40,663 nt of DNA from a virus (Duplodnaviria > Heunggongvirae > Uroviricota > Caudoviricetes). Within the stretch, counting starts at the first letter, position 1; each line of letters begins with the position of its first letter. This document shows positions 12,208-40,663 of this stretch, piece after piece. The notes under the pieces were generated by a model. It was given only the letters and a program-made list of their open reading frames with translations. It was not told the DNA's origin and ran no database searches. The position numbers and the translations under genes are program-made. The stretch is taken from IMG/VR virus record IMGVR_UViG_2802429245_000006; one strand, given 5' to 3'.

Positions 12208-12541
12208 CTCGAACCCCAAGACCGGCAATGGAATCGCTTTGTAGAGCTAGAGTTAGTGCCGCATCCTCGTATTGAGCACAGCGAAGCGATTGAGCTAGAC
12301 TATGGCATGACGGGGGGCGCTCTAAAGGTTGAGATTAGAGCGGCCTCGGCAGGCTACTTACTCAGACAATGGAATGTGGATTGTTCTACCAACGCCACAC
12401 TCCAAGATGGTGGAGCTCAATTGTACTTAAAGAACAGAGCAACACTTTATGGAGTTAAAAACATCATGCTAGCTCCAGGGATTGAAAAAGAACTTGGTAA
12501 CTAATGCACAAAAACGAACTTGGCGCAGGGAATAAATTTTG

Positions 12542-15874: not shown

Positions 15875-15877
15875 TTT

Positions 15878-16564: not shown

Positions 16565-16637
16565 AGAATAAACAATTTCAATCAGTTAAATAGTGCCACA
16601 TGCTTTTTATGCAAGGCATCACGCAAAAGGTGAACAC

Positions 16638-18629
16638 ATGGACAAATTAAAGATGCACAGCCCCGACATGACGCAGCAAAACATAGAGAAAATTCAGGCG
16701 TTGTTTCCGAACTGTGTGACGGAATCAAGAGGAGCTAACGGAGAGCTAAAGTTAGTCATTGATTTTGACCAACTTAAACAAGAGCTATCAAATTCAATCG
16801 TTGAAGGCCCGCAAGAGCGCTATCAGCTGAACTGGCCCGGTAAGCGAGAAGCACTACTAACAGCGAATGCACCTATTGCCAAAACCTTAAGACCTTGTCG
16901 AGAAGAAAGTGTCAATTTTGACACCACTAAAAACCTCTTTATTGAAGGCGATAACCTTGATGCATTGAAACTGCTACAAGAGGCATATATTGGAAAAGTC
17001 AAATTAATATATATTGATCCACCTTATAACACCGGTAATGACTTTATATATGAAGACGATTTTTCTGAAAATGCAGAGAGCTTCTTAATAAAGTCCAACC
17101 AGAAAGATAGTGATGGTAATAAATTAGTAGCGAATACAGAAGCTAATGGCAGATTTCACTCGGATTGGCTAAGCATGATGTACTCACGTTTGAAATTGGC
17201 TCGTAATCTACTAAGTGATGAAGGAGCTGTGATTATCTCAATTGATGAGAATGAACACAGCAACATAGTGAAATTAGGTGGTCTTATATTTGGCGATGAA
17301 AACTTTTGTGGCGAAATAGTCTGGAAAAATAGTAGTAAAAATGACCAGAAATATGTCTCAATACAACACGAATACCTTGTTATATTTGTTAAATCAAAGC
17401 AAAACAATAAGGGGGATTGGGTTGAGAAAAAAGAAGGCCTAGACCAAATTTATCAAGCGTTTGATGGTTTTAAACGCAAACATGGCAATGACTGGGATGC
17501 AATACATGCAGATGCGCTTGAATGGTATAGGAGTTTCCCTGCATCCAATCCAATTTCATCAAGTAAACATTATAGCTGGATGGACGAGCGCGGTGTATAT
17601 TTCCCAGATAATATTTCAGGCCCAAACGATGGTCAGTATGTTTATGACGTCATCCATCCTGTGACTAACAAACCATGCAAAATGCCTTCTACAGGATGGC
17701 GCTATCCAGAATCAACGTTAATTGAAAGAATAGCTGATAATCGAGTGCACTTTGGAAAGGATCATAAAACTGTTCCAAACAATAAAACGTATCTAAAAGA
17801 TACTGAATATCAGAGCCTTACGAGCATGCGCTTCGTTGATGGTCGCAGCGCTTCTAAAAGGCTGCAAACCCTTTTCGGTGATAAAGTTTTTACAAACCCT
17901 AAAGATGAAATTTTATTAAAAGATTTATTTAAAGCAATTGGTGTATCAGAAAAAGATATAGTCCTTGATTTCTTTGCAGGTTCTGCATCGACGATACATG
18001 CTGTTTTTGAACTCAATAAAGAAACTGGCAGTAATTGTTCGTGTATCCTAGTGCAGCTTCCAGAAGATCTGAAAGAAATGTTAAAAACGGCTAAAGGTTC
18101 TGCTAAGAAAGTCACGCAGAACGCTATCAATTATTTGAAAAATAAAGGCCTACCACAAACAATTAGTGAAATTGCAAAAGAACGTATTCGACTTTCGGGG
18201 CAAAAGTATACCGAAGATTTCGATATTGGATTCCGAGTTCTCAAAGTAGATACCTCCAACATGGCGGATGTGTACTACTCTCCAGATCAAGTTACTCAGG
18301 GTTCGTTAGACTTATTGGTAGATAATATTAAAGCAGACCGCACTGATGAAGATTTACTTTTCCAGGTTCTACTTGATTGGGGCGTCGATTTAACCTTGCC
18401 AATTAGAAAAGAAACGATTCAAGGTAAATCGGTATTCTTTGTCGATGATGATGCACTGGTGGCCTGTTTTGATCTGCGCATAAATGAAGCTTTGATTAAA
18501 GAGTTAGCCACAAAAGAGCCACTTCGCGTAGTGTTCCGTGATGACGGCTTTGAGTCTGATGCAGTAAAAATCAATGCTGAGCAGATTTTCAAGCAAGTGT
18601 CGCCACATACTGAAGTTAAAGCGATATAA
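16638..18629 (+). CDS. mod: Type III Mod-like N6-adenine DNA methyltransferase (beta class)
   Basis: Catalytic motif [12 protein letters not shown] precedes AdoMet motif [12 protein letters not shown], the order typical of Type III Mod. ATG at 16638 with AAGGTG upstream; the ORF-track frame begins 15 codons earlier. Confidence 0.85.
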
Positions 18630-18638
18630 GGAGGGATC

Positions 18639-18728
18639 ATGACAAATTTTACCGGATTAAAATTTGCACACAGCCTTGTCGCAGACAAGGTGTGCCCGAA
18701 GTGTTGCGTACATGGAGGTGCGCAATGA
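18639..18728 (+). CDS. Possible 29-aa leader peptide (uORF) coupled to res
   Basis: ATG at 18639 is 4 nt after AGGAGG; translation [29 protein letters not shown]; its TGA overlaps the res ATG (ATGA at 18725-18728). Confidence 0.3.
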
Positions 18729-21700
18729 AACTTAAGTTCAAAGTCCAACCTTATCAAACTGTTGCCGTAGAGTCGGTTGTTGACTGCTTTGCGGGGCAAC
18801 CTAACACATCCGGCGTTACCTACCGAATCGACCCTGGCGTTGCCAAGGATAAGTTTGGCAATGCTGGTTGGGATATGAGCGACCAAGACGGTTTTAAAAA
18901 TGCAGAACTCGCGATCACTGAATCGCAGTTATTGCAAAATATTCATGGTGTTCAAAGTAGACAGAACCTCCCTGTTTCAGAAGCGTTAGTCAGCAATGCT
19001 AGCGCTAAGATTAATCTCGATGTTGAAATGGAAACCGGTACTGGTAAGACATATTGCTACATCAAAACCATCTTTGAGATGAATAAGCGCTATGGCTGGA
19101 GCAAATTTATTATCGTTGTGCCTAGCATCGCCATTCGTGAAGGTGTTTACAAGTCGCTGCAAATCACAGGTGAGCATTTTGCTCAGAATTACGACGGTAA
19201 AAAGGCCCGGTTCTTTATCTATAACTCGAAACAATTGCACCAGTTAGAGAGTTTTTCTTCTGACAGTGGCATCAATGTGATGGTCATTAATATTCAAGCC
19301 TTTAATGCTTCAGGAAAAGACAATAGACGTATTTATGAAGAGTTGGATGACTTTCAGTCTAGGCGTCCTATTGATGTTATTAGTGCAAACCGTCCAATCC
19401 TGATTTTGGATGAGCCACAAAAGATGGAAGGCAAGAAGACATTAGATGCCTTAGCCAAATTCAAACCACTGATGGTACTTCGATATTCGGCCACGCATAA
19501 GACAACACATAATAAAGTGCATCGCCTGGATGCGCTTGACGCTTATAACAATAAGCTGGTTAAGAAAATTGCCGTTCGTGGTATTTCAGTAAAAGGCTTG
19601 GCGGGAACGACAGCCTATCTATATTTGGAATCCATCGAGATCTCGAAAAAAATGCCAGTGGCTCGCATTGAGATCGAAGTTAAACAACAAAATGGTATTA
19701 AACGCATACCCAAGAAGGTTACTAAGGGCGATAATCTTTTTGATCTTAGCAATGGTCTGGACCAGTACCGTGACTTTGTGGTTACTGATGTCAACGCGAT
19801 TAACGACACGGTTGAATTCAAAAATGGCCATGTTTTAACCACGGGCGATGCGACGGGAGACGTGACCGAAGAGACCATTCGCCGAATACAGATCCGCGAG
19901 ACAATTAAAGCGCACCTTGAAAAAGAAAAAACACTTTTTAACCAGGGTATAAAGGTTCTCTCTCTCTTTTTTATTGACGAAGTCGCAAAGTATAGGGACT
20001 ACTCTCAAGCCGATGAAAAAGGTGATTATGCTCGCGTTTTTGAAGAAGAGTACTCCTTGCTTGTACAGGAATATCTTGATGAGTTGACTCTTTTACCGAG
20101 TGAGCAGACTGATGCCTATAAAGCCTATCTATCGGCCATTGAAGGCTCCAGAACGCATAATGGTTACTTCTCAATTGATAAGAAATCAAATCGTCTTCAG
20201 AACCCCGGCTTTAAAGTCCGTGGTGAAGATGCCGGGCTATCAGACGATGTAGATGCTTATGATTTGATTCTAAAAGATAAGGAAAAGTTACTTTCGTTTG
20301 AAGAGCCTACTCGGTTTATCTTTTCACATTCGGCCTTGCGCGAGGGGTGGGATAATCCAAACGTATTTGTCATGTGTATGTTAAAACACAGCGACAACAC
20401 TATCTCTCGTCGTCAAGAAGTTGGGCGTGGTTTACGTCTGGCCGTCAATAAACATGGTGACAGACAAGACCATCCGGCAACTGTGCATGAAATTAATGTT
20501 TTGTCGGTGATTGCAAGTGAAAGCTATAAAGACTTTGTCACGAATCTGCAAAAAGAGATCAGCGAGTCTCTCTCAGCGAGACCTAGAAAAGCAGATGAAG
20601 CTTATTTTACGGGTAAGACAATTACAACAGCTGATGGACCTGTAGAAGTAACACCTGTCATGGCTAAGCAAATTTATAAGTATTTGCTTAAAAATGATTA
20701 TACCAATGACGTTGACGATTCAATTGCGCCATCATTCCACCAGGCTAAGGCTAGTGGACAGTTAGCGCCAATGCCTGCTGAGTTAGAGCCTTACCGCGAG
20801 CAAATATTGACCCTGATTGACGGTGTTTATAGTGAAGCGCAATTGCCAGGTGTTGGTGATGATCGTAAACCTAAAAACAATCCGTTGAATGCTAATTTTG
20901 ATAAGAAAGAGTTTCAGGAGCTTTGGCACAAAATCAATCGCAAAGCGGTTTATAAGGTTGATTTTGATTCGTCTGAGTTGATTAAAAATTGTATTCGGGT
21001 ACTCAATAAAGAGCTTAAGGTAACGCCTCTTCAGTACACGATTCAAGATGGTGTTCAATTGGATGGCATTACCGACGAACAACTCAAAGCTGGACAAAGT
21101 TTCAAGGTGAAAAACACTGAGACTGAAACTCATCAATCGAGCATTCATTCTGCTGTTCGTTATGACTTGGTTGGTAAGTTGGCTGAAAATTGTGTGCTGA
21201 CTCGCAAAACAGTCGCCGAAATACTGATGGGTATAGAACCTGTAGTATTTGCACAATTTAAGCAGAACCCTGAGCATTTTCTCGCTGAGGCTTCACGCCT
21301 TGTGAAAGAGCAAAAGGCATCTGTGATCATCGAGAAGCTATCATATGATCCAACGAACGAATCTTATGATGTTGATATATTCACGGCAGAGCAAAAAATC
21401 ACTGATATGACAAAAGCCGTTAGTGGCGTTAATAAGCATATTTATGATTATGTTGTCGTTGATTCACAAGGCATTGAACGGGACTTTGTTACCGAGCTTG
21501 ATACAAGCAAAGAAGTCGTGGTTTATGCAAAACTGCCTCGTGGTTTTCTGATACCGACGCCTGTTGGCGACTACAACCCTGATTGGGCGATTTCTTTCAA
21601 AGAAGGAAGTGTTAAACACATTTACTTTATTGCAGAGACTAAAGGAACGATGTCTTCGCTTGAATTGCGTGGCATAGAAGATCGCAAGATTGAATGTGCT

Positions 21701-21802
21701 AGGAAATTCTTTGAAAAAATTAATGCAGAGATAACGAGTGAAAACGTCAAATATGATGTTGTAACGAGTTACTCGAAATTAATGGAAGTCATAAGCGGTT
21801 AG
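18725..21802 (+). CDS. res: Type III Res-like restriction subunit (helicase plus C-terminal PD-(D/E)xK nuclease)
   Basis: Walker [11 protein letters not shown], motif [13 protein letters not shown]-like RYSATHK, motif [12 protein letters not shown]-terminal ...NPDW...FIAETKG nuclease-like motif. ATG at 18725 with GGAGG upstream. Confidence 0.85.
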
Positions 21803-25411: not shown

Positions 25412-26845
25412 TCAGAGGTCAAAGTTAGGTGCGACATACCACGTTTTTCCCTCAATAACCGGTACAACTCTGTTTTGTTCATACAGTAAATCCAGTAACC
25501 AATTGATTTTATCCTTTTTCCGGAAACGGTTCGGACCACGCTGTAAAATGTCATTTTTTTTCATACAGGGGATCCCCTTCTCAATGCAATAGCTTTTTAT
25601 CCAGTTAAAAAGTTCAAGCTCCTCTGGAATGAGTCGCACAGGTACGGTCAGGGCAGAGTTTTCAAACGTTAACGGACTGGATAACCGAACATACTCATTA
25701 CCATACCATATTGCTAATTCTCTCGCCATTTCAGCAGTGTAGGGGGAAATGTCACCTTCCTCACCGCTAAAATGGTGAATAAGTCCTGCCAGTCTTGCCA
25801 TATACTCTGCATTTTTAGCAGCATATTCTCTGAAGTCTCTTAAAGGCCCCAGAACCGACATCTTCGATTCCACATCGTTGTAATAGTCCGTCCAGATTCT
25901 GGCTGCCTGAGGAGAAAAGTGAAGGCAACGCCGCTCTCCCCTCATCGCCAGGCTTTCATCAATGAGTTCATTTATCCTCTGTTCAAACAAATCCTGATAC
26001 TGTGATGAATAATTATCTCCGGTTATTATCCTTGTCCCCTGCGTTGATGTTGGTTGACACATCAAAAACCTTGCATGATGTCCCGACGTTTTCACAAGTT
26101 CTTTTTTTCGTGTACAAAAACCTTTGTGGTAAACATCAGGCTGAACCATCACCGATATCGTCAGTCTTGGTTCCTTCAAAAAAATTCCGGGAGATGATTT
26201 CCTGTCGATGAAAAGAGAACCACCATCCCACAAAGAGTTAAGTATTCCCAGTTTACTCATTGCCCGGCTGTCAAAAATTATCCCACCTTCACTGGATACA
26301 AGAGCAAAAGAGCGATTGCTATCAGAATAATATTTTAACATTCCCTCTATCGTTGTATCATTAAAAATTGTTCGATGTATCTGTGGTGGAACAGGACACT
26401 TATTCAGATGTGTTTTAAGCTCTGATTCTGTTGTCTTATAATCTTTACCGGCACGAATCTCTTTATGAAGTTTTGACTCCAGTGCTTTTTGTTTTTGCTC
26501 CCATATTTCCTTTTCTGTACTGTAATTCTCAACCAGTTTCGCGTATTCTTCCGCCAGGGCTTCATCCCTGAGATAAAATGCTTTCATAAACACTTTATCC
26601 ACGGTCGTTTTCCTTTCACCAGAATCAGCCAGAATCATAGAGTAAATATTAGAGGACCCACGTAAATTTCCTGGCCTGCACACATCAACCTGATTCTGAC
26701 AGGCAATTGACATCGCTGTTAATGCTGCAGTTATCGCCATAGCTATAGGTGTCTGTGTATTCTTTTGAGTTTCAATTATTGCATTTCTCGCCAGCGGTGG
26801 CATTGCATATATCGGACAAGGATTTTCTGGTGCAAGTAAGCACAT
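25412..26845 (-). CDS. yfjI: YfjI-like protein (DUF3987 family)
   Basis: Long ORF; ATG at 26845 with GAGG upstream is preferred over the ORF-track start at 26863. Position between alpA and yfjJ matches CP4-57. Confidence 0.7.
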   Translation of the reverse strand: MCLLAPENPCPIYAMPPLARNAIIETQKNTQTPIAMAITAALTAMSIACQNQVDVCRPGNLRGSSNIYSMILADSGERKTTVDKVFMKAFYLRDEALAEEYAKLVENYSTEKEIWEQKQKALESKLHKEIRAGKDYKTTESELKTHLNKCPVPPQIHRTIFNDTTIEGMLKYYSDSNRSFALVSSEGGIIFDSRAMSKLGILNSLWDGGSLFIDRKSSPGIFLKEPRLTISVMVQPDVYHKGFCTRKKELVKTSGHHARFLMCQPTSTQGTRIITGDNYSSQYQDLFEQRINELIDESLAMRGERRCLHFSPQAARIWTDYYNDVESKMSVLGPLRDFREYAAKNAEYMARLAGLIHHFSGEEGDISPYTAEMARELAIWYGNEYVRLSSPLTFENSALTVPVRLIPEELELFNWIKSYCIEKGIPCMKKNDILQRGPNRFRKKDKINWLLDLLYEQNRVVPVIEGKTWYVAPNFDL

Positions 26846-27420
26846 AAATGCCTCTCTTTTCATTAATGGGTTAGTAAAGTAGCAGCAACTCCCGCTATAA
26901 TAGCGAAAATAGCTGCTGTTCAGACCTAATGTTCTGAAAAATACAGAATATCTGTAGATCTGATGTTTAATAACCGATAAGGTTAATTCAGTTCAGACTG
27001 TGTTATTTACCACGAAATATCATTCATGTTTCTCATTCTTAACACCTCCTAAAATTATTTCACTAACACCTTCCCCCCGGTCTTTTTCCTTTCTCAGGAA
27101 TCAGCCAGAACCATAGTGTAAATATTAACGGGCCCACGTAAATTTCCGGAGCTGCACACGTCAATCTGATTCTGACAGGCAATTGACATCGCTGTTAATA
27201 ATGATGTTGTAGTCATAGCCAGAGATGCTTTTTCATTTTGTTGAGTTTCAATTATTGCATTTCCAGTCATTGATGGTTGCGCATATACTGGATACGGAGT
27301 ATCCGGTTTGATGTAAGACATAAATATTCCCTTTTTTCGTAATGACTTTCGGTTATAGCAGCTATTTCCGCTACAATAGCAACAATAGCTGCTATACAGA
27401 CTGGATATACTGAAAATACA
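26603..27420. repeat. Tandem imperfect direct duplication (~350 bp, roughly 75-80% identical) of the yfjI promoter-proximal and 5' coding region
   Basis: 26603-26940 aligns with 27076-27420 by eye (for example gacaggcaattgacatcgctgttaat and gagtttcaattattgcattt occur in both). Confidence 0.75.
27094..27321 (-). pseudogene. Truncated duplicate of the yfjI 5' end
   Basis: 75-aa ORF MSYIKPDTPYPVYAQPSMTGNAIIETQQNEKASLAMTTTSLLTAMSIACQNQIDVC... parallels the N-terminus of the full gene and ends inside the duplicated block. Confidence 0.6.
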
Positions 27421-27426
27421 AACAGT

Positions 27427-27654
27427 TCATCTGGTCTGTATCCAGCAGAGAAGGTCACTTAACAACCATCCGCAAGATTTCTTTCCGATAGACTTACGTG
27501 GTGGAAATTTTCCCTCCCGTTCAAGTTTCCACGCTTGCGTACGAGAAACTGACGTGATCTCATATCGTTCCTTTTCACGTACCAGTCTGTCGCATTCAAT
27601 CCCATAAGCTTTCAAAATGACCAGACGCTGTTCATCTGTTAATGGAAGCCACAT
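27427..27654 (-). CDS. alpA: AlpA-family phage transcriptional regulator (HTH)
   Basis: ATG at 27652-27654 with AGGAGGG upstream; ...ERYEITSVSRTQAWKLEREGKFPPRKSIGKKSCGWLLSDLLCWIQ resembles AlpA-type HTH proteins. Confidence 0.75.
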   Translation of the reverse strand: MWLPLTDEQRLVILKAYGIECDRLVREKERYEITSVSRTQAWKLEREGKFPPRKSIGKKSCGWLLSDLLCWIQTR

Positions 27655-29978: not shown

Positions 29979-30064
29979 ATCACTGAGGGGATAACAGCCC
30001 GGTTATCCCCTGTTTGTTCTGCTTCAGGTTGCCAGAGCTCTAGGAACACGAGGCAATCGGCAAA

Positions 30065-30661
30065 TTATGCGGCTTTTCCATTAACAGATTCGGCCACAAG
30101 AACGACAGTGTGTTTGTTTCGCTCAGGATGTTCACTCCAGATTTCTGATTCCGGGATGCTTTCCCCGTCATAACTGATCCGTTCGCCATCAAACGGGTAA
30201 TACCGTGCGGAATCAGTATCTAAAATAAACACCTTCAGATTCGTTGAACGACGCGCAATATGCTGCCAGAGAGCTTTTCCTCCTTCATATTGCTCGTTAT
30301 CACTTAATAGTACAACGCCCGCTTTTGTGACTATCGTTTCATAAACAAACGTTGCAAGACCAACATCGCGTACAGCTCCATCGACAACAATCCCTTCAAT
30401 CTGAGCAACATCCTGTTCTTCCCAGAATTTCTGGACAAACACGCCTTCAAGTCGGGGACGACGCTGAAGCTCCAGAGTGGCAACAACCTTATGGCGAACA
30501 TCACCATCAATAACAGAAGGTGCAGCTTCGATTACCGCAGCAAACGGAGTCTTTGGATCCCAGATGATCTGGTAAAGCACGCCCTGAATAGTTACTCCAT
30601 CCAGTATCGAAAAACGACGGGCTACAGTAGCAGGGGAGTAAGACATTGGAATTACAGCCAT
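30065..30661 (-). CDS. Hypothetical protein, 198 aa, function unknown
   Basis: ATG at 30659-30661 with GAGGGG upstream; the ORF-track start at 30691 is a GTG without an RBS. Confidence 0.55.
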   Translation of the reverse strand: MAVIPMSYSPATVARRFSILDGVTIQGVLYQIIWDPKTPFAAVIEAAPSVIDGDVRHKVVATLELQRRPRLEGVFVQKFWEEQDVAQIEGIVVDGAVRDVGLATFVYETIVTKAGVVLLSDNEQYEGGKALWQHIARRSTNLKVFILDTDSARYYPFDGERISYDGESIPESEIWSEHPERNKHTVVLVAESVNGKAA

Positions 30662-30790
30662 TTTAGAATCCCCTCTGAGTAATACAGGCACGAAAATTTA
30701 CCTCAATAATTATAGTAAACAATACCAGAGCCAGGCGCATCAACAATACTCATCAATTGTACTCAAGTCGTACAACGATCAGGAACGCCC

Positions 30791-32107
30791 TCACCTTCTA
30801 CCAAACAGATTAACAACATTATTACCTGTCTGCTGTTGGTGGTTATTAACCCGGTCCTCCCAGATCTCAAGTGCTCTGCGTTTTTCTGGCAAATAATCGT
30901 ATCGATCATAATGTTTTGAACTGACATCGTTCAACGCATGATTTTGAATACGATCGCGGATTTCCTTACTGATTCCAGCTTCTCCCATTAACGTTTTACA
31001 GGTCCGACGTAAGTCACGTGCTGTAAAAATTTTAAAGTCAGGATTACAAGCCCGGAAATACATGATAGCGCGAGCCAGACTGTCCGTACGAACCGGACGC
31101 TTACCATTAGTCGAAAGCGGGAAAATGTAAGGGCTCGATTTTTCTTTTGTTAACTCCTGCACACAAGATAATTCCTGTAATGCTGATTCAGTCAACGGTA
31201 TCAAATGTTCTCGCTTATTTTTAGAGACATCCGCAGTCACCAGCAGCGTTTTTTGCTGAAAATCAACATCACACCACTGACTGGCGATCATTTCGAAGGG
31301 ACGTTGCCCCCCGGTATAGATACAGAATCGGATCAAATGTTGCATCAATAATCCAACGTTGGTTGCTTCAGCAAAATGTTCCATTAGAAAACGCAACTCT
31401 TCGAGTGTCAGCCAGGTGTCACCGACTTTTTCAGCAGATGACTGTTTCGGTATCACTGATACCGGATTGGCCTCCAGCCCAAAAGTAATCCCTACACTTG
31501 TGTTCATCGGATCGTTATCAGCTTTCAGACCATAGTTAAATGCAGCCATCAGGTAAGAACGGATCCGGTTAGAGTGAACCACTGCACCGCGCTGAATGAT
31601 CCCGGCCAGGATATGTTTAATCTGTCCGGAAGTCACATCTTTAGCTTTAGTCTCACGGGGGATCACTGTATAGCATTCATTTTCAAGGCGTTTCAGAACA
31701 TCCTGCCATGTTCTCTTATTATCAATTTTCATTTTGTTAACATAACCATGAATCAATGCTTCAAATGAGCCCTGTGATTGATGGAGTTGTATCCGCTGCT
31801 GTTCTGCAAGCTGTTGTCGCTCCAGTTCTGTCTGGGGATCCTTTCCTTCAATGAGCCAGGCACCATACTTTTTTGCCAGTTCATTCGCTGTAGCCAGTTT
31901 CATCTCAGGCCATATACCCAATTGAATGAATCTTTCTTTTTTCCCTTTTTCCACGTAATAGCGGAAATAGAAAATTTTGCTGCCAGAAGACTGAACTTTG
32001 ATGCCAAGTCGTCCAGTGCCACGTTGAGAACTGTTGCTCCAGACATAGAACGATGTCTTTTTTGCTTTCAATGCTCGGATAGCTGTTTCAGTTAGATTGA
32101 CGGCCAT
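30791..32107 (-). CDS. int: Tyrosine-type site-specific integrase (P4/CP4-like)
   Basis: 438 aa; C-terminal catalytic region with ...HALNDVSSKHYDRYDY... and ...RDLRRTCKTLM... typical of tyrosine recombinases; ATG at 32105-32107. Confidence 0.9.
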   Translation of the reverse strand: MAVNLTETAIRALKAKKTSFYVWSNSSQRGTGRLGIKVQSSGSKIFYFRYYVEKGKKERFIQLGIWPEMKLATANELAKKYGAWLIEGKDPQTELERQQLAEQQRIQLHQSQGSFEALIHGYVNKMKIDNKRTWQDVLKRLENECYTVIPRETKAKDVTSGQIKHILAGIIQRGAVVHSNRIRSYLMAAFNYGLKADNDPMNTSVGITFGLEANPVSVIPKQSSAEKVGDTWLTLEELRFLMEHFAEATNVGLLMQHLIRFCIYTGGQRPFEMIASQWCDVDFQQKTLLVTADVSKNKREHLIPLTESALQELSCVQELTKEKSSPYIFPLSTNGKRPVRTDSLARAIMYFRACNPDFKIFTARDLRRTCKTLMGEAGISKEIRDRIQNHALNDVSSKHYDRYDYLPEKRRALEIWEDRVNNHQQQTGNNVVNLFGRR

Positions 32108-32303
32108 AGAACCTCTTTTCTAAACCAGTAACAATCAAAATAACTCGTAAATTTGGGTCAGGTAATGGGTCAGGTAACGATCGTACAATGGAGAAAAAAC
32201 GGAACCAAGCGGAAACAGAAGCAATTACATAATTACTTGATTATAAACAATTAATAAAACAATTACGAACAAACCAAAACAATATAGAATGGACTTGCCT
32301 CAT

Positions 32304-32350
32304 GACTCATAATCGCTTGGTCGTTGGTTCAAACCCAACAGGGGCCACCA
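32304..32350 (+). other. tRNA-Ile(CAU) (ileX/ileY-like) 3' fragment: anticodon loop through CCA, no 5' half; putative att core
   Basis: GACTCATAATCGCTTGGTCGTTGGTTCAAACCCAACAGGGGCCACCA matches the 3' 47 nt of ileX as recalled, with compensatory T-stem changes. The preceding 29 nt do not form the acceptor/D arm. Confidence 0.7.
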
Positions 32351-32358
32351 TATCTATC

Positions 32359-32395
32359 AAGGGGTTACGTTAACAGCGTGACCCCTTCGTTTTTT
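32359..32395 (+). terminator. Intrinsic terminator immediately 3' of the tRNA fragment
   Basis: Stem aaggggttacg/cgtgacccctt with one mismatch, followed by TTTTTT at 32390-32395. Confidence 0.55.
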
Positions 32396-32906
32396 CTAGG
32401 ATACCTATAGGATACCGTGACAGAGTATAAGCAGGTATAAAAACAACAAGTTACGCAACATCATACCTGTCATGAAACTTTAACTATCCGACATGATAGC
32501 TGGTCGATGATCACGGATAATCCGTTATGTGGATCCCCATATCGGCATCAGACCCACCAGCGTGAAGCGTTTTTCATTTTTCGCGGGTATAAAAAATCGA
32601 TGGGGCTGGCAGTCCGGAAGACGTCAGGTCACAGGGATTTGACCCGCCCCTCCCTGTGCATGAGCACAATAAGTAACCGAAGGCGGAATTCCGCCCTCGG
32701 TACTCACATATGAGAAACGATATTTCTTCCACCGATACCCTTTATTTGGGTATCGCGAGTAAGCCCCAAAATCTGGGTGTTACTCTTACTACCCAAACTA
32801 CGGGTAGTTTCCGTAATTTCATGGTCGAGTTGCAGATCTGCAACTCACCCACCAGCGCAACGCTGAAAGCCAGTCAGTAAACTGGCTTCGGTCATTGTGC
32901 ACTACG

Positions 32907-33449
32907 TTACTTGTCTTTATCCGGCTGAAACTTATCAGGCACATTTCCGGTAGTTTCCATCAGATAATCGGACAGCATTCGCGGGATGTTTTCATCAAGT
33001 TTTGTGCATGCGTTACAGGCTCTGACAACTTCTTTTTTCAGGCCATCCAGCATGACGGGGGTCATCTGTGGGAAGCTCCTTTGCATAGTAAGCGGCAGGC
33101 TGTCCATGATTGATGAAATCTGACTCGCCAGTTTTGAAAGCGCGTACATGCAAAACTCTGTATCAATCACGTCACCGCGATCGCGCTCGTTTTTAAGTTC
33201 CTGCGCCTCCGCCTGTGCTGTCAGTAATCTGATCCTGACTCGTAAGAGTTCATCATCATCAATCTCGCCTTTGTCGTTTGTAAGCTGGCTAATTGCATTG
33301 TTAACCCTATTGTCTATCACGCTGGCAACATCATAAAACGCCTCACGGCCTTTACGTTCAACGGGAGTCACTCCCCACTTGTCGAATGCTGTAGCACTTA
33401 CCCGGCAGCTTTGCGCCATGGTTTTTTTGTTCATCAGGTGCGATTTCAT
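32907..33449 (-). CDS. Terminase small subunit, lambda Nu1-like
   Basis: ...LTAQAEAQELKNERDRGDVIDTEFCMYALSKLASQISSIMDSLPLTMQRSFPQM... parallels lambda Nu1 as recalled. Start uncertain: ATG at 33449 or 33434. Confidence 0.75.
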   Translation of the reverse strand: MKSHLMNKKTMAQSCRVSATAFDKWGVTPVERKGREAFYDVASVIDNRVNNAISQLTNDKGEIDDDELLRVRIRLLTAQAEAQELKNERDRGDVIDTEFCMYALSKLASQISSIMDSLPLTMQRSFPQMTPVMLDGLKKEVVRACNACTKLDENIPRMLSDYLMETTGNVPDKFQPDKDK

Positions 33450-33650
33450 CAATATCCCAACTTGGTCAAGGTTTCAGGTTGGTGTGTTGGTGTTATCTTT
33501 CCCTTTTTATTCATGGAGATAGAGCAAACAACAAAACCACCACCACCACCCTGAAAAAGCTCATAAATAGCGAAAAACCGCGAGGTCGCCGCCCCGTAGC
33601 CTACCGGATCGCCGGAAAGGACCCGCCAGCCAGAACGGGCCCTAATTTCA

Positions 33651-34034
33651 TCAACCAATCAACTTATAGCGACCATCCCGTGCATTGCGGCGTACACGCT
33701 CAATCTTGAGGCATAGCGCCGCATCTGGCTTTTTTGGGACAGGTACGCGGCAATATTCAGAAGCTCGAGGAATATTGTTTATCCAGTCGATCACTTCGCT
33801 TAAATACCAGGCCTTACGCCCTTCCGTAACCTGTACGCGTTCGGGGAACTCTCCGCGAGCCTCAAGGTTTAGCAATGTGCGACGGCTAAGGGTAGTAAGT
33901 TCCATCACCTGATTCATATCAACAAGGCGTTCACTTAAACGCATTTTGTCAGCAATAGCCTTTAATTCCTCTACTGCTGGATCCGGATACATCATTTCGG
34001 CAATTGGCTTAAGGTCATTGTAATGATTCTGCAT
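33651..34034 (-). CDS. HTH DNA-binding protein (AlpA/excisionase-like HTH with N-terminal extension), 127 aa
   Basis: ATG at 34034 with AGGGGGAT upstream; contains ...LTTLSRRTLLNLEARGEFPERVQV... HTH-like segment. Confidence 0.5.
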   Translation of the reverse strand: MQNHYNDLKPIAEMMYPDPAVEELKAIADKMRLSERLVDMNQVMELTTLSRRTLLNLEARGEFPERVQVTEGRKAWYLSEVIDWINNIPRASEYCRVPVPKKPDAALCLKIERVRRNARDGRYKLIG

Positions 34035-34045
34035 TGTATCCCCCT

Positions 34046-34387
34046 TTACACACGAGCCAGCGGCTGAACAGAAATACCTGAGCCAACAAACGCGGCAACC
34101 TTTGCCGACAGTTCTTTTACAGACTCAGGCCAGTTCAGAGCATCAACATTTAAAACACCTGTCTTATAAACCTGTGCCTGTGTTTTTTTCGCTGTGTCGA
34201 TTTGTACAGCGGAAACATAAACCGCTTTGCCTGCGCTCGTTCCATCCCATACCACTAGCGCACCAGTTGCATCTTCCTGCATCAGTGGCGTAAACGCAGG
34301 TATTACCCCTTTATTGGCTGAAAATATCCCCAGCGTAGTAACCAGTGCTTCAGTGCCAGACATGAGTTCAGTGTAATGAGTAGCCAT
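34046..34387 (-). CDS. Head decoration protein, lambda gpD-like
   Basis: 113 aa; ...PLMQEDATGALVVWDGTSAGKAV... parallels the gpD pattern PLMLD...LVAWDGT; strong RBS AAGGGGGAG. Confidence 0.65.
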   Translation of the reverse strand: MATHYTELMSGTEALVTTLGIFSANKGVIPAFTPLMQEDATGALVVWDGTSAGKAVYVSAVQIDTAKKTQAQVYKTGVLNVDALNWPESVKELSAKVAAFVGSGISVQPLARV

Positions 34388-34396
34388 TGCTCCCCC

Positions 34397-35443
34397 TTAG
34401 CCAATGCGAACGGTAACAAAACGATTGATGCGGGCCGGTATTGGCTGTGGTGCTGAATGTGTCTGCACATATTCAATAGCCGGATCACCAGGCACAATAT
34501 AGTTTTTCGGTGCAAGTTCGGCTTTAGTCAGCCCCATCCGAATTAGCTCCGGATCCTGAATACCGCCATAAGCGACAATCCCCTGAAGAGCCGTATTGCC
34601 AAGCACCATCAAATCAGGATCAAGGAAATATTTTTCAGTTCCGTCCTCGTCGGTATAACGCCCGCTGTAAACAACAATCGCAACATCGCCCATATACCCT
34701 TTAAAACTCACCGAATCACCAAGGTCTTTAAGGGCCGTTTCCAGTTCGGAATTAGAACCACGACGGGTATCCAGAGCCTCTTTTATCGCTCTGAATGAAC
34801 GGTATTTCTTCCATACATTACCGCCCATAATGATGATATTAGTGACGCCCTCACTAAATTCTGCGTAGCTCTCAATATCATCATTTGGATCAAAAGTTTC
34901 TTTATCCTTACCTGACCACTCAGCACCGCCAGACTGCGTGATAATATTTTGTGGTTTTATATTCCAGTCCAGTTCATAACGTTCAATACCATCGCCCTCA
35001 ATGATATTTTTCCCCGTTGTGATTGCCTGAACAGCAAGCCATTCAATACGTGCACGTATAGCTTTAGCCTGATTTACAATCGCCTGTTTAACTTTAATAT
35101 TACGCGCCCCAAAAGCATTGTATTGTTCAGGTGATACACCAGCAGGGCGCACAGCTAACTTATTTGGATCAATGCTGCTTTTCGGTTTCATATAGCCAGG
35201 GCGAATTGTTTTTGATTCGTATCCCTCATCTCGTGAAACTTTACTGCCCACCATAGGAGAGCAAAACGCCGCGATCGGGATATTTGGATCGTCGATCGTA
35301 TCAAGAATAATGTCTCTCGATTCAAACATTACCGAGCGAGTGAAAAACAAACTGGTAAACAACGCATTTAATTTTTTTTGCACATCTTCAGCATTAGCCA
35401 CCTGCACAAGCTGTGTAGGCGAATATAAATCAACCATACTCAT
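34397..35443 (-). CDS. Major capsid protein, lambda gpE-like
   Basis: From the ATG at 35443 (AAGAGG upstream): MSMVDLYSPTQLV... and a long block ...NIITQSGGAEWSGKDKETFDPNDDIESYA...DTRRGSNSELETALKDLGDSVSFKGYMGDVAIVVYSG... closely parallels lambda E. Confidence 0.85.
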   Translation of the reverse strand: MSMVDLYSPTQLVQVANAEDVQKKLNALFTSLFFTRSVMFESRDIILDTIDDPNIPIAAFCSPMVGSKVSRDEGYESKTIRPGYMKPKSSIDPNKLAVRPAGVSPEQYNAFGARNIKVKQAIVNQAKAIRARIEWLAVQAITTGKNIIEGDGIERYELDWNIKPQNIITQSGGAEWSGKDKETFDPNDDIESYAEFSEGVTNIIIMGGNVWKKYRSFRAIKEALDTRRGSNSELETALKDLGDSVSFKGYMGDVAIVVYSGRYTDEDGTEKYFLDPDLMVLGNTALQGIVAYGGIQDPELIRMGLTKAELAPKNYIVPGDPAIEYVQTHSAPQPIPARINRFVTVRIG

Positions 35444-35721
35444 CCTCTTTACATTCATTACAAATAATTGTGAATATATTCTATTACCGATGTCTGCTAT
35501 GCGAATACATGCAACCAAGTGCAATGTTGTATAAAATATGCCGTGACAACTTCAGTGCTGATAATTCGTGTTAATGTATTTACTTCCTTTGGTCGGGATT
35601 TATGTAGCATGCCGGAAAATCTATTTTTTTCCGGCATCTTTTTGTTTGCAGAATTTAAAACGGTATATTATCGCCGTACGGATCATCATTCCCCGACTGT
35701 TGTTTTGCCCTGTTCAGTGCG

Positions 35722-36078
35722 TCAGTGGCCTGCCCCTGCTGGCCTTTTTTTGCCGCCCGGTCGCGCCGTTCGCGCACTGATTACGCTGTCTGCGATAACC
35801 TGCCAGCCCTGCCGCGTTTCGCCGTTCTGGCCTGTCCACTGGCTTACCTGCATGTTACCCGCCACGCTCACCAGTTCGCCTTTGTGGTGTTTTGCCAGTG
35901 CGTCGGCCTGTCTGCCAAACGCCAGGACGGATAACCACATCGTCGCCGTTCCGTCATCTGCCTGGCTGCACGGAAGGGGGACCGCCATACTAGCCATCGC
36001 CATTTGTGTACCCTTGCTGGTGGTCTTTAACTGCGGGTCAGCCACCAGCCGTCCGTAAGCCGCTATCTGTGCTGTCAT
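35722..36078 (-). CDS. SSB-like OB-fold protein (118 aa)
   Basis: ...YGRLVADPQLKTTSKGTQMA...VSQWTGQNGETRQGWQVIADSV... resembles single-stranded DNA-binding proteins; start overlaps the upstream stop (ATGA). Confidence 0.5.
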   Translation of the reverse strand: MTAQIAAYGRLVADPQLKTTSKGTQMAMASMAVPLPCSQADDGTATMWLSVLAFGRQADALAKHHKGELVSVAGNMQVSQWTGQNGETRQGWQVIADSVISARTARPGGKKRPAGAGH

Positions 36079-36317
36079 GCTGTCTGCTCTCCGGTTTTAA
36101 CGTTGATGGTTGTTACCTGTTCCGCTTCGGCAATCTCCCGTTCTGTCATCGTGGCAAAGTTTGCAGCTGCCGTTGTCATGAATGCGCTAATCAGTTCGGG
36201 ATGTGCTTTCGCATATCCTTCCCCGGCGTTGCGGTCGATGATTTTTATCGCCACTCTCAGCCAGTGCTCTGTAAGGTCAATAGCGCGGTAGTGTGGTTGT
36301 TTGCGGTTTGCCTTCAT
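36075..36317 (-). CDS. Hypothetical protein (80 aa)
   Basis: ORF between the iteron array and the SSB-like gene; stop overlaps the SSB-like start. Confidence 0.4.
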   Translation of the reverse strand: MKANRKQPHYRAIDLTEHWLRVAIKIIDRNAGEGYAKAHPELISAFMTTAAANFATMTEREIAEAEQVTTINVKTGEQTA

Positions 36318-36356
36318 AGTTCAGATCTCAATTTTTCGTATATATATACAAAACAG

Positions 36357-36680
36357 TGCGGGTTATGCGGGTTAGCGGGTTAGCGGGTTATCTTCGCTTG
36401 CTAAGTATTTTTTATTCATTAATATCAATACATTACAAAATTAACTGTTTACTGTTTAGCCGTGGCGTAACCCGCAAAATGCTCAAAATAACCCGCAAAC
36501 GGGGTTTTTTCTGCGGGTTACGCGTGGCTGTTTGCTGTCACTTCCTGTTATTCATCTGCGGGTTATAATCGCACTTTTGTGGGTTATAACTGCCGTTTTG
36601 CGGGTTACGTGCGGGTTATTGATTTCCTTTTTATTCATGCAGTTAATGCACTTATACACAGAGTAACCCACATAACCCGC
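36357..36680. repeat. Iteron array: at least 13 copies of GCGGGTTA / TAACCCGC in both orientations (putative replication origin)
   Basis: Four tandem copies at 36357-36392 and dispersed copies at 36468, 36488, 36513, 36558, 36579, 36600, 36611, 36664 and 36673; adjacent AT-rich tatatata tract at 36340-36350; immediately downstream of the primase-helicase-like gene. Confidence 0.75.
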
Positions 36681-36703
36681 AACTTTTCACCTCACACAGG
36701 GGG

Positions 36704-38827
36704 TTAATCTTCTGCCTCAGGCTGGAACATCAGCACGTAAAAAACATGCTGCTTCCCCCCAATTTTGCCGAGAGCCTTTTTCTTGTAACGGCGATCGTTA
36801 CCCGCTTCCAGCATTCCGGCAGCACTCAACGCGCGGGCAAAGTGGGACGGGTTAAATCCCTGTGCGATCTCCCCCTCAAACACATGAGGAAACGTGTAAA
36901 AACGGAACTCATCATCTTCATTTCTGATACTCCCCTTTCTGTATCCGGCAAGGTCTTTAATCGGTAAATCACGTTCATCACTGTTTGGGTAAGGAAGGTA
37001 TCGACTGAACCCGAACGACGACAAAAACGCCTCAGCCTGTTCAACCATCTGTTTAAATTCCCTGTTACCCGTGCCGAACTCCTTCACCCAGGCATTAAAG
37101 TTATGCTGTATTGCGTCCCGGCATTCCTGCGCGGCCCAGCCAGTTACATGACCGGAAAGCACAAGCGCGGCCTCCAGTATGGCGAAACGCTCACCCACGC
37201 GGTGGACCTGCTCGCCGTAGCTCTCCGGTATCAGGTTGCGCCACCGTTCGCGGCATTCCCTTACCGTATCCTTTGCCTCCTGCTGGTGGCCTGCCAGCCA
37301 TTTAACCCACTCACGACCCGCTGCCCCGTGATTTTCTGTCCAGGCATCCTTTAACGCGTCTGCGTGCGCCTTTCCGGTGCTGTATTCGTGAAAGTGCGTG
37401 GCTTTTTCCATCGGAACGTTAAGCAGGCGGACAAGCTGCCCCGCTTTGACTTTTATCCCCTCCGTTTTGAGGAATGTCTCAACGTCCATTTCTCCGGTGC
37501 TGATTGCCACCGTGCGCCAGTGTTTTATCTCCCGGTTGCCGCCGTCCTTCGCCCCCTGTAATTTCCCGGAACCGTTAAACAACGTATAGGCTGACGTGGA
37601 CACCTCCCGCGCGTTTCCGGCCTGGCCTATTTCATCCAGGGGTAACAGCCCGTCGTTGTGCGCCTCTGCCTCGTTAGCGATACCTAACGCTGTGCCGTAC
37701 CAGGTCAGCCGTTGTGCGTCCGGCTCTCCCCATAAACTTGATGCGATGTTCTGCGTGGTGGTTTTCCCTGCCGATGACTGTTCGAAAAGATGTACCCCGA
37801 AGCCGTCAGCACCAACAAGGCCAATCAAAGGTGCTGCCAGTGACGTGGCAACACCCAGCATCATGGACGGATTGCCACCAGCCAGCCGCGCCACGCAGTC
37901 GCGCCAGCCCTCCGACGTACCCGCAACCGAATAGCCATTAACAGTGGCACTTTTTCCGGTAAACAGGATCGGTTTTTCAGAATCACCAATGATTGAGCCG
38001 TCCGGCATGATATACGCGCCAAAATGCCAGCCCGTTGTTGTGCTTAGCTGCCATTCCTCATGGCTTCCGCTTAACTGCATCCAGTCAGCCAGGATAGCCC
38101 TGTATTTGCCGTTTGTTGTCACGTTCAGCCCGTGATCTTTAAGCAACCGCCAGCCGTCACGGTCGCCAATGCCACCACACGGGATCGCCATTGTGATGAC
38201 TTCATGGTTTGCTAATTTTTTCCAGCGCATCACGCGGTAATGCTCTTTACCGATCGTCCCTGTTCCCAGTAGTTCAAGCGGAGAACATAACCACGTCTCA
38301 GGCCGGATAATTTCGCCTGACTGCTTATCCACTTTGGGCGTTACCCAGAAAACACCATCGACGCGACTTTCAACGCGGGGCTTTAATTCATCATCCTGAT
38401 AGCATGGCTCTTTTTTCTTTACAGGCAGTTCAACTACCTTTTTCTTTTCCGCCTGCTCTGCCCGTTCACGTTCCAGATATTCACGCCAGTTCTCCCGTTT
38501 CTGGCTGTGCATTCCTTCAGGGTAATAATCAGCATCCCTGACACCTGCCGCTGCCAGTTTCTGCCCGATGGTATTAACAAGCCCCGGACGCAATAACCCC
38601 GCCTGATAGAGACGCACGCGATAGCGTCCGTCCGGTACGATTTGCAGGTTGTCCAGTTCGGCAAGTTGTTGCTCTCCAAGCCAGACAGGAGGCACGTTAT
38701 CGCCAGCCAGTCGCCCGTCCTGTTCCTGCCACTGCTTCGCATGTGCCCACGCATCACTACCCGCAAAAATGATGACTTCCGTCATTTTGTCACGTGGCTG
38801 GTGTTTTAAATTTGGCGCTTTTTTCAT
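36704..38827 (-). CDS. Primase-helicase-like replication protein (P-loop ATPase, DUF927/P4-alpha-like)
   Basis: 707 aa from the ATG at 38827; Walker A-like FEQSSAGKTT and Walker B-like LLPLDEIG; position next to the iterons. Confidence 0.7.
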   Translation of the reverse strand: MKKAPNLKHQPRDKMTEVIIFAGSDAWAHAKQWQEQDGRLAGDNVPPVWLGEQQLAELDNLQIVPDGRYRVRLYQAGLLRPGLVNTIGQKLAAAGVRDADYYPEGMHSQKRENWREYLERERAEQAEKKKVVELPVKKKEPCYQDDELKPRVESRVDGVFWVTPKVDKQSGEIIRPETWLCSPLELLGTGTIGKEHYRVMRWKKLANHEVITMAIPCGGIGDRDGWRLLKDHGLNVTTNGKYRAILADWMQLSGSHEEWQLSTTTGWHFGAYIMPDGSIIGDSEKPILFTGKSATVNGYSVAGTSEGWRDCVARLAGGNPSMMLGVATSLAAPLIGLVGADGFGVHLFEQSSAGKTTTQNIASSLWGEPDAQRLTWYGTALGIANEAEAHNDGLLPLDEIGQAGNAREVSTSAYTLFNGSGKLQGAKDGGNREIKHWRTVAISTGEMDVETFLKTEGIKVKAGQLVRLLNVPMEKATHFHEYSTGKAHADALKDAWTENHGAAGREWVKWLAGHQQEAKDTVRECRERWRNLIPESYGEQVHRVGERFAILEAALVLSGHVTGWAAQECRDAIQHNFNAWVKEFGTGNREFKQMVEQAEAFLSSFGFSRYLPYPNSDERDLPIKDLAGYRKGSIRNEDDEFRFYTFPHVFEGEIAQGFNPSHFARALSAAGMLEAGNDRRYKKKALGKIGGKQHVFYVLMFQPEAED

Positions 38828-39123
38828 TTCTGCTCTCTCCACGCGGCAATCATGTTTTTCAGTTCCTGTAGTTTTTTATCCACATTCACACGTGACACAT
38901 GGTTATTTCTGGAAAGCGGGATTTCCCGCCTGAATCTGCTAATAAAGATCTCCACGTTCAGCGAACTATGAAATGAATAGCCATCACGAATAAAATACAC
39001 ACGGTCAAACATTATCGATTTTACTGTTACTCTGTTGCCGTTCTTATCCCGATAAATAGCGCCGGGGATAATTTTGGGATGTGCATAACCGCTGGCAGTC
39101 AAGCCAGATAAATACGTTCTCAT
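38824..39123 (-). CDS. Hypothetical protein (99 aa)
   Basis: ATG at 39123; stop overlaps the primase start (ATGA). Confidence 0.45.
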   Translation of the reverse strand: MRTYLSGLTASGYAHPKIIPGAIYRDKNGNRVTVKSIMFDRVYFIRDGYSFHSSLNVEIFISRFRREIPLSRNNHVSRVNVDKKLQELKNMIAAWREQK

Positions 39124-39129
39124 GATTAT

Positions 39130-39450
39130 TTATCCCCGATTTGAATCAGTATTCGCTTTCTTTATGGCATTTAATGCATCTGTGGCATTTTCAATGGTGC
39201 ACCGTAACGAAATATCAAAATGTCCAAGCATTGCCAGTAACAAACCGATATTACCCATATCAATGCGCATGGCCTTTTCGTCATAGTCCTCATTTTCTGA
39301 CGCATGCCACATCAGGCTACCAATTGACGCAACGGCCATTGATATATTGTCAGTCGCCCCATCCGCAGCGGAATAAACCTTTTTAGCAATATCATGCTCA
39401 CAGTTAAAATGCGGATTAATCAGGTACTGGTAATTTGACATATCAGGCAT
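39130..39450 (-). CDS. Hypothetical protein (106 aa)
   Basis: ORF in the same co-directional gene string; no family recognised. Confidence 0.45.
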   Translation of the reverse strand: MPDMSNYQYLINPHFNCEHDIAKKVYSAADGATDNISMAVASIGSLMWHASENEDYDEKAMRIDMGNIGLLLAMLGHFDISLRCTIENATDALNAIKKANTDSNRG

Positions 39451-39646
39451 GGCACACCCCCTGACGAATACGGGCGGCGAATACCATCACGCAGCCAGCC
39501 GGGGATTGCTGGCGTGCTTCCTGTTCGCTGGTGGCCACGATGGTAATCACACGCGGTTTTGCGGCGCTCAGGGCGATAAAACGCCAGGCGAATTTATTCA
39601 GGTTGTGCGAATCCCGCCCTTGCGGGTGTATGGTATGATTTCTCAT
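39443..39646 (-). CDS. Hypothetical small protein (67 aa)
   Basis: ATG at 39644-39646 with GAGGTA upstream; corresponds to the C-terminal part of the 334-aa ORF-track frame, which I consider spurious as a whole. Confidence 0.35.
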   Translation of the reverse strand: MRNHTIHPQGRDSHNLNKFAWRFIALSAAKPRVITIVATSEQEARQQSPAGCVMVFAARIRQGVCHA

Positions 39647-39742
39647 AGCTACCTCGATACTCTCGTTATCGTTGGTGGTTAGAAGCCCTGCGAGTGGTAA
39701 CGACACTTGCGGGGCTTTGTTTTTTGTTGCACTTACTGTTAA

Positions 39743-39786
39743 TGTACGTACGTAATATTGATGATAATAGGAGTTACGTACGTACA
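39743..39786. promoter_or_regulatory. Operator-like inverted repeat overlapping the RBS and start of the RHH gene
   Basis: TGTACGTACGTAA (39743-39755) and TTACGTACGTACA (39774-39786) are exact reverse complements, separated by 18 bp containing TAGGAG. Confidence 0.5.
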
Positions 39787-39977
39787 TGTCAACATTAAAG
39801 CGGGATAAATCACCACGCGGCGAGGGATGGTCGCCGACATTCCAGATACGAATTAGCAAAGAACTACGCCAGCAAGTAAACGAGGCAGCAACCGCCGATG
39901 GCCTAACCCTCGGCAATTGGTTTAAAGAATTAGCTCGTGCCGAACTAAAGCGACGTGGCATTGAACCTAAAGGCTGA
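39786..39977 (+). CDS. Ribbon-helix-helix (Arc/MetJ/CopG-like) putative repressor, 63 aa
   Basis: ...FQIRISKELRQQVNEAATADGLTLGNWFKELARAEL... has the beta-strand/helix pattern of RHH proteins; divergent from the satellite gene string. Confidence 0.5.
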   Translation: MSTLKRDKSPRGEGWSPTFQIRISKELRQQVNEAATADGLTLGNWFKELARAELKRRGIEPKG

Positions 39978-40453
39978 TGTATGACTGAAAAGCAGACCGA
40001 TAACAAACTTTCTCTACCAGAGAATAAACCAGCAGGCTTCTTACCAAGAAAAATCCTTGATGAGATCAAACGCCGCCAGCGGCGCAAGGCCAAAGAGCTG
40101 GAGTAACCATCACCAGCGCCGTGGTGCGGTGAACTGTGGCGCACAGGGTTACAGGTATCTACGATGACTGACAAATCATTAAAGAAATTATCCTCATCCA
40201 AGAAAAAACAACGCAAAAATGCGGTAAACGAACATGAACCGGAGAGATTCGCACCATGTGCGTTTATCCTTGAGAAGTACCTTAAAGAGTATTCTAGGAA
40301 AATACGCTCATTGCAGGCATGGCAGCGAATCGAGCCAGACTGATAGCATTGCCCACCAGCCAACAACCTGGTATTCTGGATATGCTCAAGTTTAGTGTTA
40401 TGCCACTGGCGGCCCTCTGCGGTCGCCTTTGTTTTATGTGCCATCACTCCCCC

Positions 40454-40663
40454 TTACACCGTCTGCGTTCTGCGAGTGGATGCAAGATAAGCATCGAGAT
40501 CAGTGCGCATATACAGCACTTTGCGCCCCAGCTTATGGAAAGGGATTTTTACCTTGCCAGTACAGGCCCAGTTCGCCAGCGTTTGATTGTTAACGCCAAG
40601 GTAGGCAGCAGCTTCAGCACGTGTAAGGCGGTCAGTTGATAAATCAGATTTCTTTAAATTCAT
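40454..40663 (-). CDS. AlpA/excisionase-family HTH protein (69 aa)
   Basis: ATG at the window edge (40661-40663); ...LTRAEAAAYLGVNNQTLANWACTGKVKIPFHKLGRKVLYMRTDLDAYL... is an excisionase/AlpA-like HTH. Confidence 0.65.
   Translation of the reverse strand: MNLKKSDLSTDRLTRAEAAAYLGVNNQTLANWACTGKVKIPFHKLGRKVLYMRTDLDAYLASTRRTQTV

Follow-up and report, generated by a model that had tools for sequence, protein, structure and literature searches.

A probable TerS-type Gram-negative phage-inducible chromosomal island at the ileX tRNA gene

What kind of element carries genes for a lambda-like capsid protein, a decoration protein and a Nu1-like small terminase (TerS), and none for a large terminase (TerL), a portal or a protease? 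The question is raised by positions 32351-40663 of the virus record IMGVR_UViG_2802429245_000006, whose full 40,663 nucleotides are referred to here as the window. The initial annotation took this region for a satellite of lambda-like helpers that matched no described family it recognised and that supplies both its own capsid shell and its own packaging specificity. Our analysis indicates, with high confidence, that most of an 11.3-kb Gram-negative phage-inducible chromosomal island (PICI) lies here, inserted in the 3′ end of ileX and assignable to the branch of the EcCICFT073/EcCIIHE3034 lineage that encodes TerS. The proposals of a satellite of lambda-like helpers and of an island-encoded packaging-specificity protein (a Nu1-family TerS) are supported; those of a new family and of a self-made shell are not. 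We describe the anatomy of the element from its sequence and its mechanism from the published PICI model. Coordinates are those of the window, and features of the element lie on the minus strand unless stated otherwise.

Formal searches bear out the lambda-family assignments of the three minus-strand genes, with matches far beyond chance. The major capsid protein (MCP) homologue (34397-35437, 346 aa) is assigned to the lambda E family by Pfam (Phage_cap_E PF03864, E=3.6e-41) and by a PHROG scan, and shares 42% of its residues with lambda E in a full-length BLASTP alignment (E=9e-86). The decoration protein homologue (34046-34387) falls in the lambda D family (Pfam HDPD PF02924, E=2.3e-15; PHROG scan), with 40% identity to D itself by BLASTP. 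TerS (32907-33449, 180 aa) matches Pfam Phage_Nu1 PF07471 (E=9.8e-23) and PHROG 57 (E=6e-52); BLASTP aligns it with lambda Nu1 at 37% identity over residues 7-167 of 181, the C-terminal TerL-binding region included. Neither Nu1 nor RppC was retrieved when TerS and the AlpA-like protein described below were searched against PDB sequences, and the Nu1 homology rests on BLASTP and Pfam. Genes for TerL, portal and protease are indeed missing, and the 8.3 kb is fully taken up by 12 other genes. The initial annotation had allowed that these three might lie just outside the window. They were looked for in strains A36 and CFSAN018748 and are not there; the largest open reading frames (ORFs) scanned in positions 1-30000 belong to an unrelated genomic island and include no TerL, portal or protease either.

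The same two strains define the borders of the element. Among complete Escherichia coli genomes searched by megablast, A36 is 99.1% identical over all of 30700-40663. Past the equivalent of position 40663 it carries a gene for a hypothetical protein of 238 aa, a 473-aa tyrosine integrase and then the chromosomal gene nfeF, with nothing else between. The integrase sits 0.9 kb beyond the window end, and CFSAN018748 has the same arrangement, with the second attachment site (att) as a repeat beside nfeF. In that strain the PICI stands alone between an intact tRNA-Ile gene (ileX) and nfeF, with imperfect repeats (47-65 nt) of the tRNA 3′ end, in direct orientation, at its borders. The left att repeat in the window is a plus-strand 3′ fragment of tRNA-Ile (ileX, anticodon CAU; 32303-32350), an exact and unique match that also forms the junction with a second island. 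The same sequence in CFSAN018748 is the 3′ end of the annotated tRNA-Ile and recurs 11,289 bp away beside nfeF. This att copy was spotted by eye and then confirmed against CFSAN018748. No intact tRNA is detected in the window by ARAGORN; only a 3′ fragment of ileX is present because the second island (integrase at 30791-32107) was inserted into this site in tandem. Adjoining the att repeat are AGGATACC direct repeats (32398-32440, plus strand; family D3), which recur near both ends of the element in CFSAN018748 and are candidate arm-type sites for the integrase. The window end cuts the element, leaving about 2.9 kb outside (the hypothetical gene, int and attR).

Within these borders the element has the composition of a PICI. 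Its size falls within the range of about 8-15 kb, and att repeats mark a specific site. A tyrosine integrase is located at one end, as seen in A36 and CFSAN018748 beyond the window end. The genes are essentially unidirectional, and AlpA/MerR-type regulators are represented by the integrase-proximal HTH_17 protein (40454-40663) and by an AlpA-family protein (33651-34034). A DUF927 primase is followed by an origin of 13 iterons, and the packaging module comprises the MCP, the decoration protein, a Nu1-type TerS and a lambda-type cos. Tail, lysis, portal, protease and TerL genes are absent from the ORFs of the element and its flanks. The combination of capsid, decoration and TerS genes without TerL, portal or protease is the already-known standard make-up of Proteobacterial PICIs and not a new satellite family, because both gene order and sequence match published Gram-negative PICIs and the core set given in the literature. 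These islands were described in 2018 (Fillol-Salom et al. 2018, ISME J; PMC6092414). In SatelliteFinder the PICI core consists of integrase, regulator, primase-replicase, capsid homologue (a capsid-morphogenesis gene) and terS (PMC10085698), and 21 of 29 reference Gram-negative PICIs carry a major capsid gene (PMC10111431).

The closest named relative is EcCIIHE3034 (coordinates from Table S1 of PMC6092414), which already shows the order MCP, decoration, X, cos, TerS that the initial annotation did not recognise as described (PMC6092414). EcCIIHE3034 and EcCI18098 share with our island the full series int, helix-turn-helix (HTH) regulator, Icd-like, DUF4222, primase, hypothetical, ssb, MCP, decoration, X, cos and TerS, and the last gene of EcCIIHE3034 is annotated "terminase small subunit." Identity to EcCIIHE3034 is high for TerS (87%), the cos-terS DNA (88%), ssb (87%), the 80-aa hypothetical protein (89%) and the Icd-like protein (87%). 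The two islands differ elsewhere. EcCIIHE3034 is located at cspD-clpS rather than at the ileX tRNA; the integrases are unrelated at a useful level (23%); the primase of our island is of the DUF927 type and homologous at the N-terminus only; the MCP and decoration alleles are only about 54% identical; and an extra SfIV-type cos (cos2) exists in our island only.

EcCICFT073, the prototype Gram-negative PICI and of the Rpp type, has the order int, HTH, Icd-like, small ORFs, DUF4222, primase, hypothetical, SSB, PerC regulator, hypothetical, MCP, decoration, hyp137, cos, RppA. It resembles our island in architecture, in the homologous c1499 and c1500 genes and in lambda-identical cosQ and cosN at the same position; the MCP is 54-55% identical to c1499 and its EcCIIHE3034 counterpart, and the decoration protein is 54% identical to c1500. 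A difference lies downstream of cos. Rpp proteins (139-154 aa) are devoid of a TerL-binding tail, and the 144-aa RppA of EcCICFT073 hijacks the helper TerS. Our island instead encodes at this location a full-length TerS of 180 aa that is collinear with Nu1 to the C-terminus, where it aligns with the Nu1 TerL-binding tail (LDExIPxxLSxY); it has no BLAST match to RppA. Furthermore, the slot before cos, which holds an unrelated 137-aa hypothetical protein in both EcCICFT073 and EcCIIHE3034, is occupied by the AlpA-like gene, and whereas both cos sites of EcCICFT073 carry lambda cosN, the second cos of our island belongs to another phage family. The allele combination thus differs from those of the named islands, yet departs in nothing from the known kind.

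The cos1-terS module is found at ≥80% coverage in 759 of 5426 complete E. coli genomes, roughly one in seven, and the MCP-decoration allele of the island in 395. The site ileX is not among the integration sites listed in the 2018 reference table of PICIs. We regard the island as a clean example of the TerS-type branch.

The first cos region, cos1, lies immediately upstream of terS and combines lambda-like and N15-like features. Its cosN, GGGCGGCGACCT (33583-33594), reproduces the lambda cohesive end without a mismatch and has a single exact match in the window. The cosQ-like element GGGTCCTTTCCGG (33612-33624) has the same sequence and cosN spacing as the lambda right end. Positions +1 to +34 are identical in lambda, EcCICFT073, EcCIIHE3034 and the window, save for one T/G difference at +18. 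Beyond about +45 the resemblance to lambda ends, with 40 of 105 positions matching, but identity to EcCIIHE3034 is 88%. In the cosB-equivalent region (33450-33582), whose role in binding is putative, (GGT)4 precedes a TTGTTGTTT motif, and there is also a CCAAC/GTTGG inverted repeat. The TTGTTGTTT motif resembles R3 of N15, whose single R3 site (bp 48-60) reads GAGGTTGTTGTTT (PMC9026076). The closest phage relative of TerS, also in its DNA-binding domain, is N15 gp1 (47.5%), and the predicted recognition regions are very similar. The TerS/cosB pair would therefore be N15-like in specificity, with cosN and cosQ suited to lambda-type large terminases. A full-length N15-like TerS beside a lambda-identical cosN fits the published idea that Rpp proteins evolved from such a TerS. 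We also note that at the R3-equivalent position (33535-33550) the TerS-type islands have (GGT)4 on the top strand, and EcCICFT073 (about 27610-27622 of its locus) has (ACC)4, its reverse complement, a few bp further on.

The initial annotation remarked that the order (E before D, terS last) differs from lambda. The minus-strand order MCP, decoration, AlpA-like, cos, terS stands, but "terS last" depends on prophage linearisation: counted from cos, the order is cosQ, cosN, cosB, terS, the same as in lambda. Its description of all genes as minus-strand with short or overlapping junctions is correct for the junctions (9-nt and 11-nt gaps, 4-nt overlaps) and fails for two small plus-strand ORFs (39786-39977 and 39981-40106).

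The mechanism can be modeled on EcCICFT073 (PMC6092414, PMC6739421, PMC9026076). A lambda-like helper phage would induce the island regulator, upon which the island would excise and replicate from its own origin as concatemers. A divergent, N15-like winged-helix domain of its TerS is predicted to bind the island-specific cosB, and the conserved Nu1 C-terminus of the same protein to recruit a helper large terminase of the gpA type. The helper terminase would then nick the lambda-identical cosN, and island multimers would be loaded into helper capsids and fitted with helper tails; four island copies amount to 45 kb, a lambda-sized fill. Helper-dependent induction, packaging, transfer and interference have been shown for EcCICFT073, but not for EcCIIHE3034 or EcCI18098 (PMC6092414).

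Several points weigh against assignment as a functional TerS-type PICI. The two TerS-type islands just named were not transferred upon mitomycin C induction of resident prophages, and none of the TerS-type E. coli PICIs has a demonstrated helper (PMC6092414). Binding of TerS to cosB and to the helper TerL is predicted from homology alone. The integrase and attR are known from near-identical strains and not from the window itself. Finally, the copy in the window has a frameshifted ssb and sits in a tandem island array, and could have decayed in part.

From the capsid and decoration genes the initial annotation proposed a self-made shell. An island that builds its own capsids from E-like and D-like proteins, borrowing portal, protease or scaffold, TerL and tails from the helper, would be intermediate between PICIs and capsid-forming PICIs (cf-PICIs). 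Its appeal is that a full-length MCP and its cognate decoration protein have been retained and have diverged together, both being about 54% identical to their EcCICFT073 alleles, and that the MCP forms a lineage apart from every sequenced phage (best match 41.8%). Both proteins are nearer to the alleles of other PICIs (54%) than to those of any phage (at most 42%). Between the window and CFSAN018748 the MCP gene shows 14 synonymous differences and one non-synonymous (ratio of non-synonymous to synonymous substitution rates, dN/dS, about 0.02), strong purifying selection from which we conclude that the gene is kept by selection. In EcCICFT073, however, deletion of the homologous capsid or decoration gene left transfer and interference unchanged, and the DNA packaged was all of phage size (PMC6092414). 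Genes for scaffold, portal and protease, which the cf-PICIs that do make capsids all have, are missing from the island. On these grounds the claim of an own capsid shell is unsupported, and we consider island-specific capsids unlikely. We do not expect the conserved MCP and decoration homologues to make a shell by themselves, though the pair might act only with a natural helper yet to be tried. A cf-PICI of the EcCIEDL933 type was itself considered. Such islands have a PICI-type left half (int, alpA, primase) and encode a capsid protein and TerS, like ours, but add a portal, a prohead protease, head-tail adaptors or connectors, TerL and HNH and make their own small capsids. Portal, protease, connector and TerL genes (with or without HNH) were found neither in the element nor in the A36 and CFSAN018748 flanks, and this assignment was rejected.

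Two further explanations are much less probable than island-specific capsids. A decayed lambdoid prophage that happens to keep E, D and Nu1 would account for capsid, decoration and TerS genes of lambda families and for the broken ssb, but the gene order is not that of lambda, none of the proteins exceeds 48% identity to a phage protein, and the 11.3-kb unit is compact, lying between att repeats with its own int, regulator, primase and origin. Hundreds of genomes, and PICIs mobilised in experiments, show the same architecture, and we consider a remnant highly improbable. More improbable still is a P4-like satellite exploiting P2-type helpers. It would share the tRNA-adjacent tyrosine integrase, the AlpA-family regulator, the Icd-like gene and a large primase, yet among the ORFs no match was obtained to the P4 families (Sid, Psu, Delta, Epsilon (Ash), alpha primase). 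Moreover, cos is lambda-type rather than P2/P4-type, and the lambda-family MCP, D and Nu1 genes are ones that P4 does not have. A TerS-type Gram-negative PICI remains the preferred assignment. Parallels also exist with SaPIs, the pathogenicity islands found in Staphylococcus aureus: in pac SaPIs a satellite-encoded TerS redirects the helper TerL, cos SaPIs carry a copy of the helper cos, and SaPIbov5, a cos SaPI, has an MCP homologue (Ccm). These belong to another phylum, however, and show no sequence relationship; our island is cos-based, unlike the pac SaPIs, and redirection of capsid size is not established in E. coli PICIs.

A second cos region, cos2 (32572-32654), is located between terS and att. 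It is of the SfIV/ST64B/phiP27-like HNH-cos type, with 95-100% identity to the ends of two phage records, ST64B and SfIV; the latter is linearised at cos (PMC3851460). Against the circularised SfIV junction the match is continuous: of its 83 positions, 36 from the right end and 47 from the left, 81 are identical. The intergenic region between genes for an HNH endonuclease and a P27-family TerS in an O157:H7 prophage has this same sequence. CFSAN018748 carries cos2 in its copy of the island too (6234-6357 of its locus). The segment is linked to terS in 86 complete genomes and is absent from EcCICFT073 and EcCIIHE3034. EcCICFT073 has two functional cos sites (PMC6092414), both lambda-type. Judging from its sequence, cos2 probably also lets HNH-cos phages package the island. 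It is possible, at what we would put somewhat below an even chance, that the ileX PICI lineage holds two functional packaging sites belonging to unrelated terminase systems, with cos1 served by its own N15-like TerS and cos2 by a P27-family TerS, TerL and HNH. If both work, one island could be mobilised by two helper-phage families, and a heterologous second cos suggests a simple route by which a satellite could broaden its helper range.

The minus strand of 32560-32760, part of which is cos2, gives a fold of -79.8 kcal/mol, far more stable than those of shuffled controls (z = -5.2). An Rfam scan of 30000-40663 gave no match; a known RNA was rejected for this reason, and the folding is explained by the phage cos region. 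Just upstream, a GGCGGAATTCCGCC hairpin could be the terminator of the terS operon.

The remaining genes follow the PICI plan. The primase/replicase (36704-38827, 707 aa) matches Pfam DUF927 (E=3.7e-47) and PHROG 1139, DNA primase (E=6e-180), and its N-terminal 230 aa are about 50% identical to the EcCICFT073 Pri. Directly 3′ of it lies the replication origin (36358-36680, no strand assigned), in which 13 TAACCCRC iterons in both orientations surround an AT-rich core; 13 of the 14 matches in the window fall here, against a whole-window expectation of 2.1. In published PICIs the origin is likewise immediately 3′ of the primase (PMC6092414). The conserved 80-aa PICI hypothetical protein (36075-36317; PHROG 1231) is 89% identical to its counterparts in both EcCICFT073 and EcCIIHE3034. 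The ssb gene (35655-36078; Pfam SSB), whose product is 79-87% identical to those of the same two islands, has an A7 run at about 35745-35751 where the intact CFSAN018748 copy has A6, placing the acidic C-terminal tail (DDPYGDNIPF) out of frame. It is annotated as frameshifted in A36 too, and is either a pseudogene or the product of a sequencing error.

Upstream of the primase are a DUF4222 protein (38824-39123; Pfam), in the same position in EcCICFT073 and EcCIIHE3034, a 106-aa hypothetical protein (39130-39450; PHROG 15327, E=2e-71) and a 67-aa homologue of the Icd-like cell-division inhibitor (39443-39646), assigned from the A36 RefSeq annotation and 87-89% identical to the EcCICFT073 and EcCIIHE3034 proteins. 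The two small divergent ORFs on the plus strand (39786-40106; 63 and 41 aa) are annotated in A36, with a weak HicB-like match, and the pair occupies the same position in the EcCICFT073, EcCIIHE3034 and CFSAN018748 islands. The MerR/excisionase-type HTH_17 regulator (Pfam, E=1.2e-11) has its start codon at the window end and is followed by the hypothetical gene and int in A36 and CFSAN018748. The second AlpA-family HTH protein (127 aa) is supported by Pfam Phage_AlpA (E=1.4e-8), PHROG 2790 (E=1.8e-48) and the AlpA structure PDB 8c3t (E=1.6e-10). It represents a second regulator inside the packaging module, in the variable slot between the decoration gene and cos. PADLOC identified no defence system among the unassigned ORFs, returning two marginal matches (E about 0.003-0.005) to the AlpA-like protein.

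Positions 1-32302 are occupied by the second, larger island in tandem at the tRNA-Ile site. It encodes a DUF4942 protein (1-846), an Ag43/AIDA-type autotransporter (5701-8625), a transposase (10702-11865), a cluster of SNF2 helicase, DUF4391, N6 methylase and ResIII endonuclease genes that resembles a restriction/defence system (12539-21802) and a DUF3987 protein (25412-26863). The tRNA 3′ end supplied by the PICI (32303-32350) differs from the native ileX (17291-17355 of the CFSAN018748 locus) in having GTTGG...CCAAC for GCTGG...CCAGC, paired changes that preserve the T-stem. The T-loop differs as well, and the reconstituted tRNA is therefore a variant.

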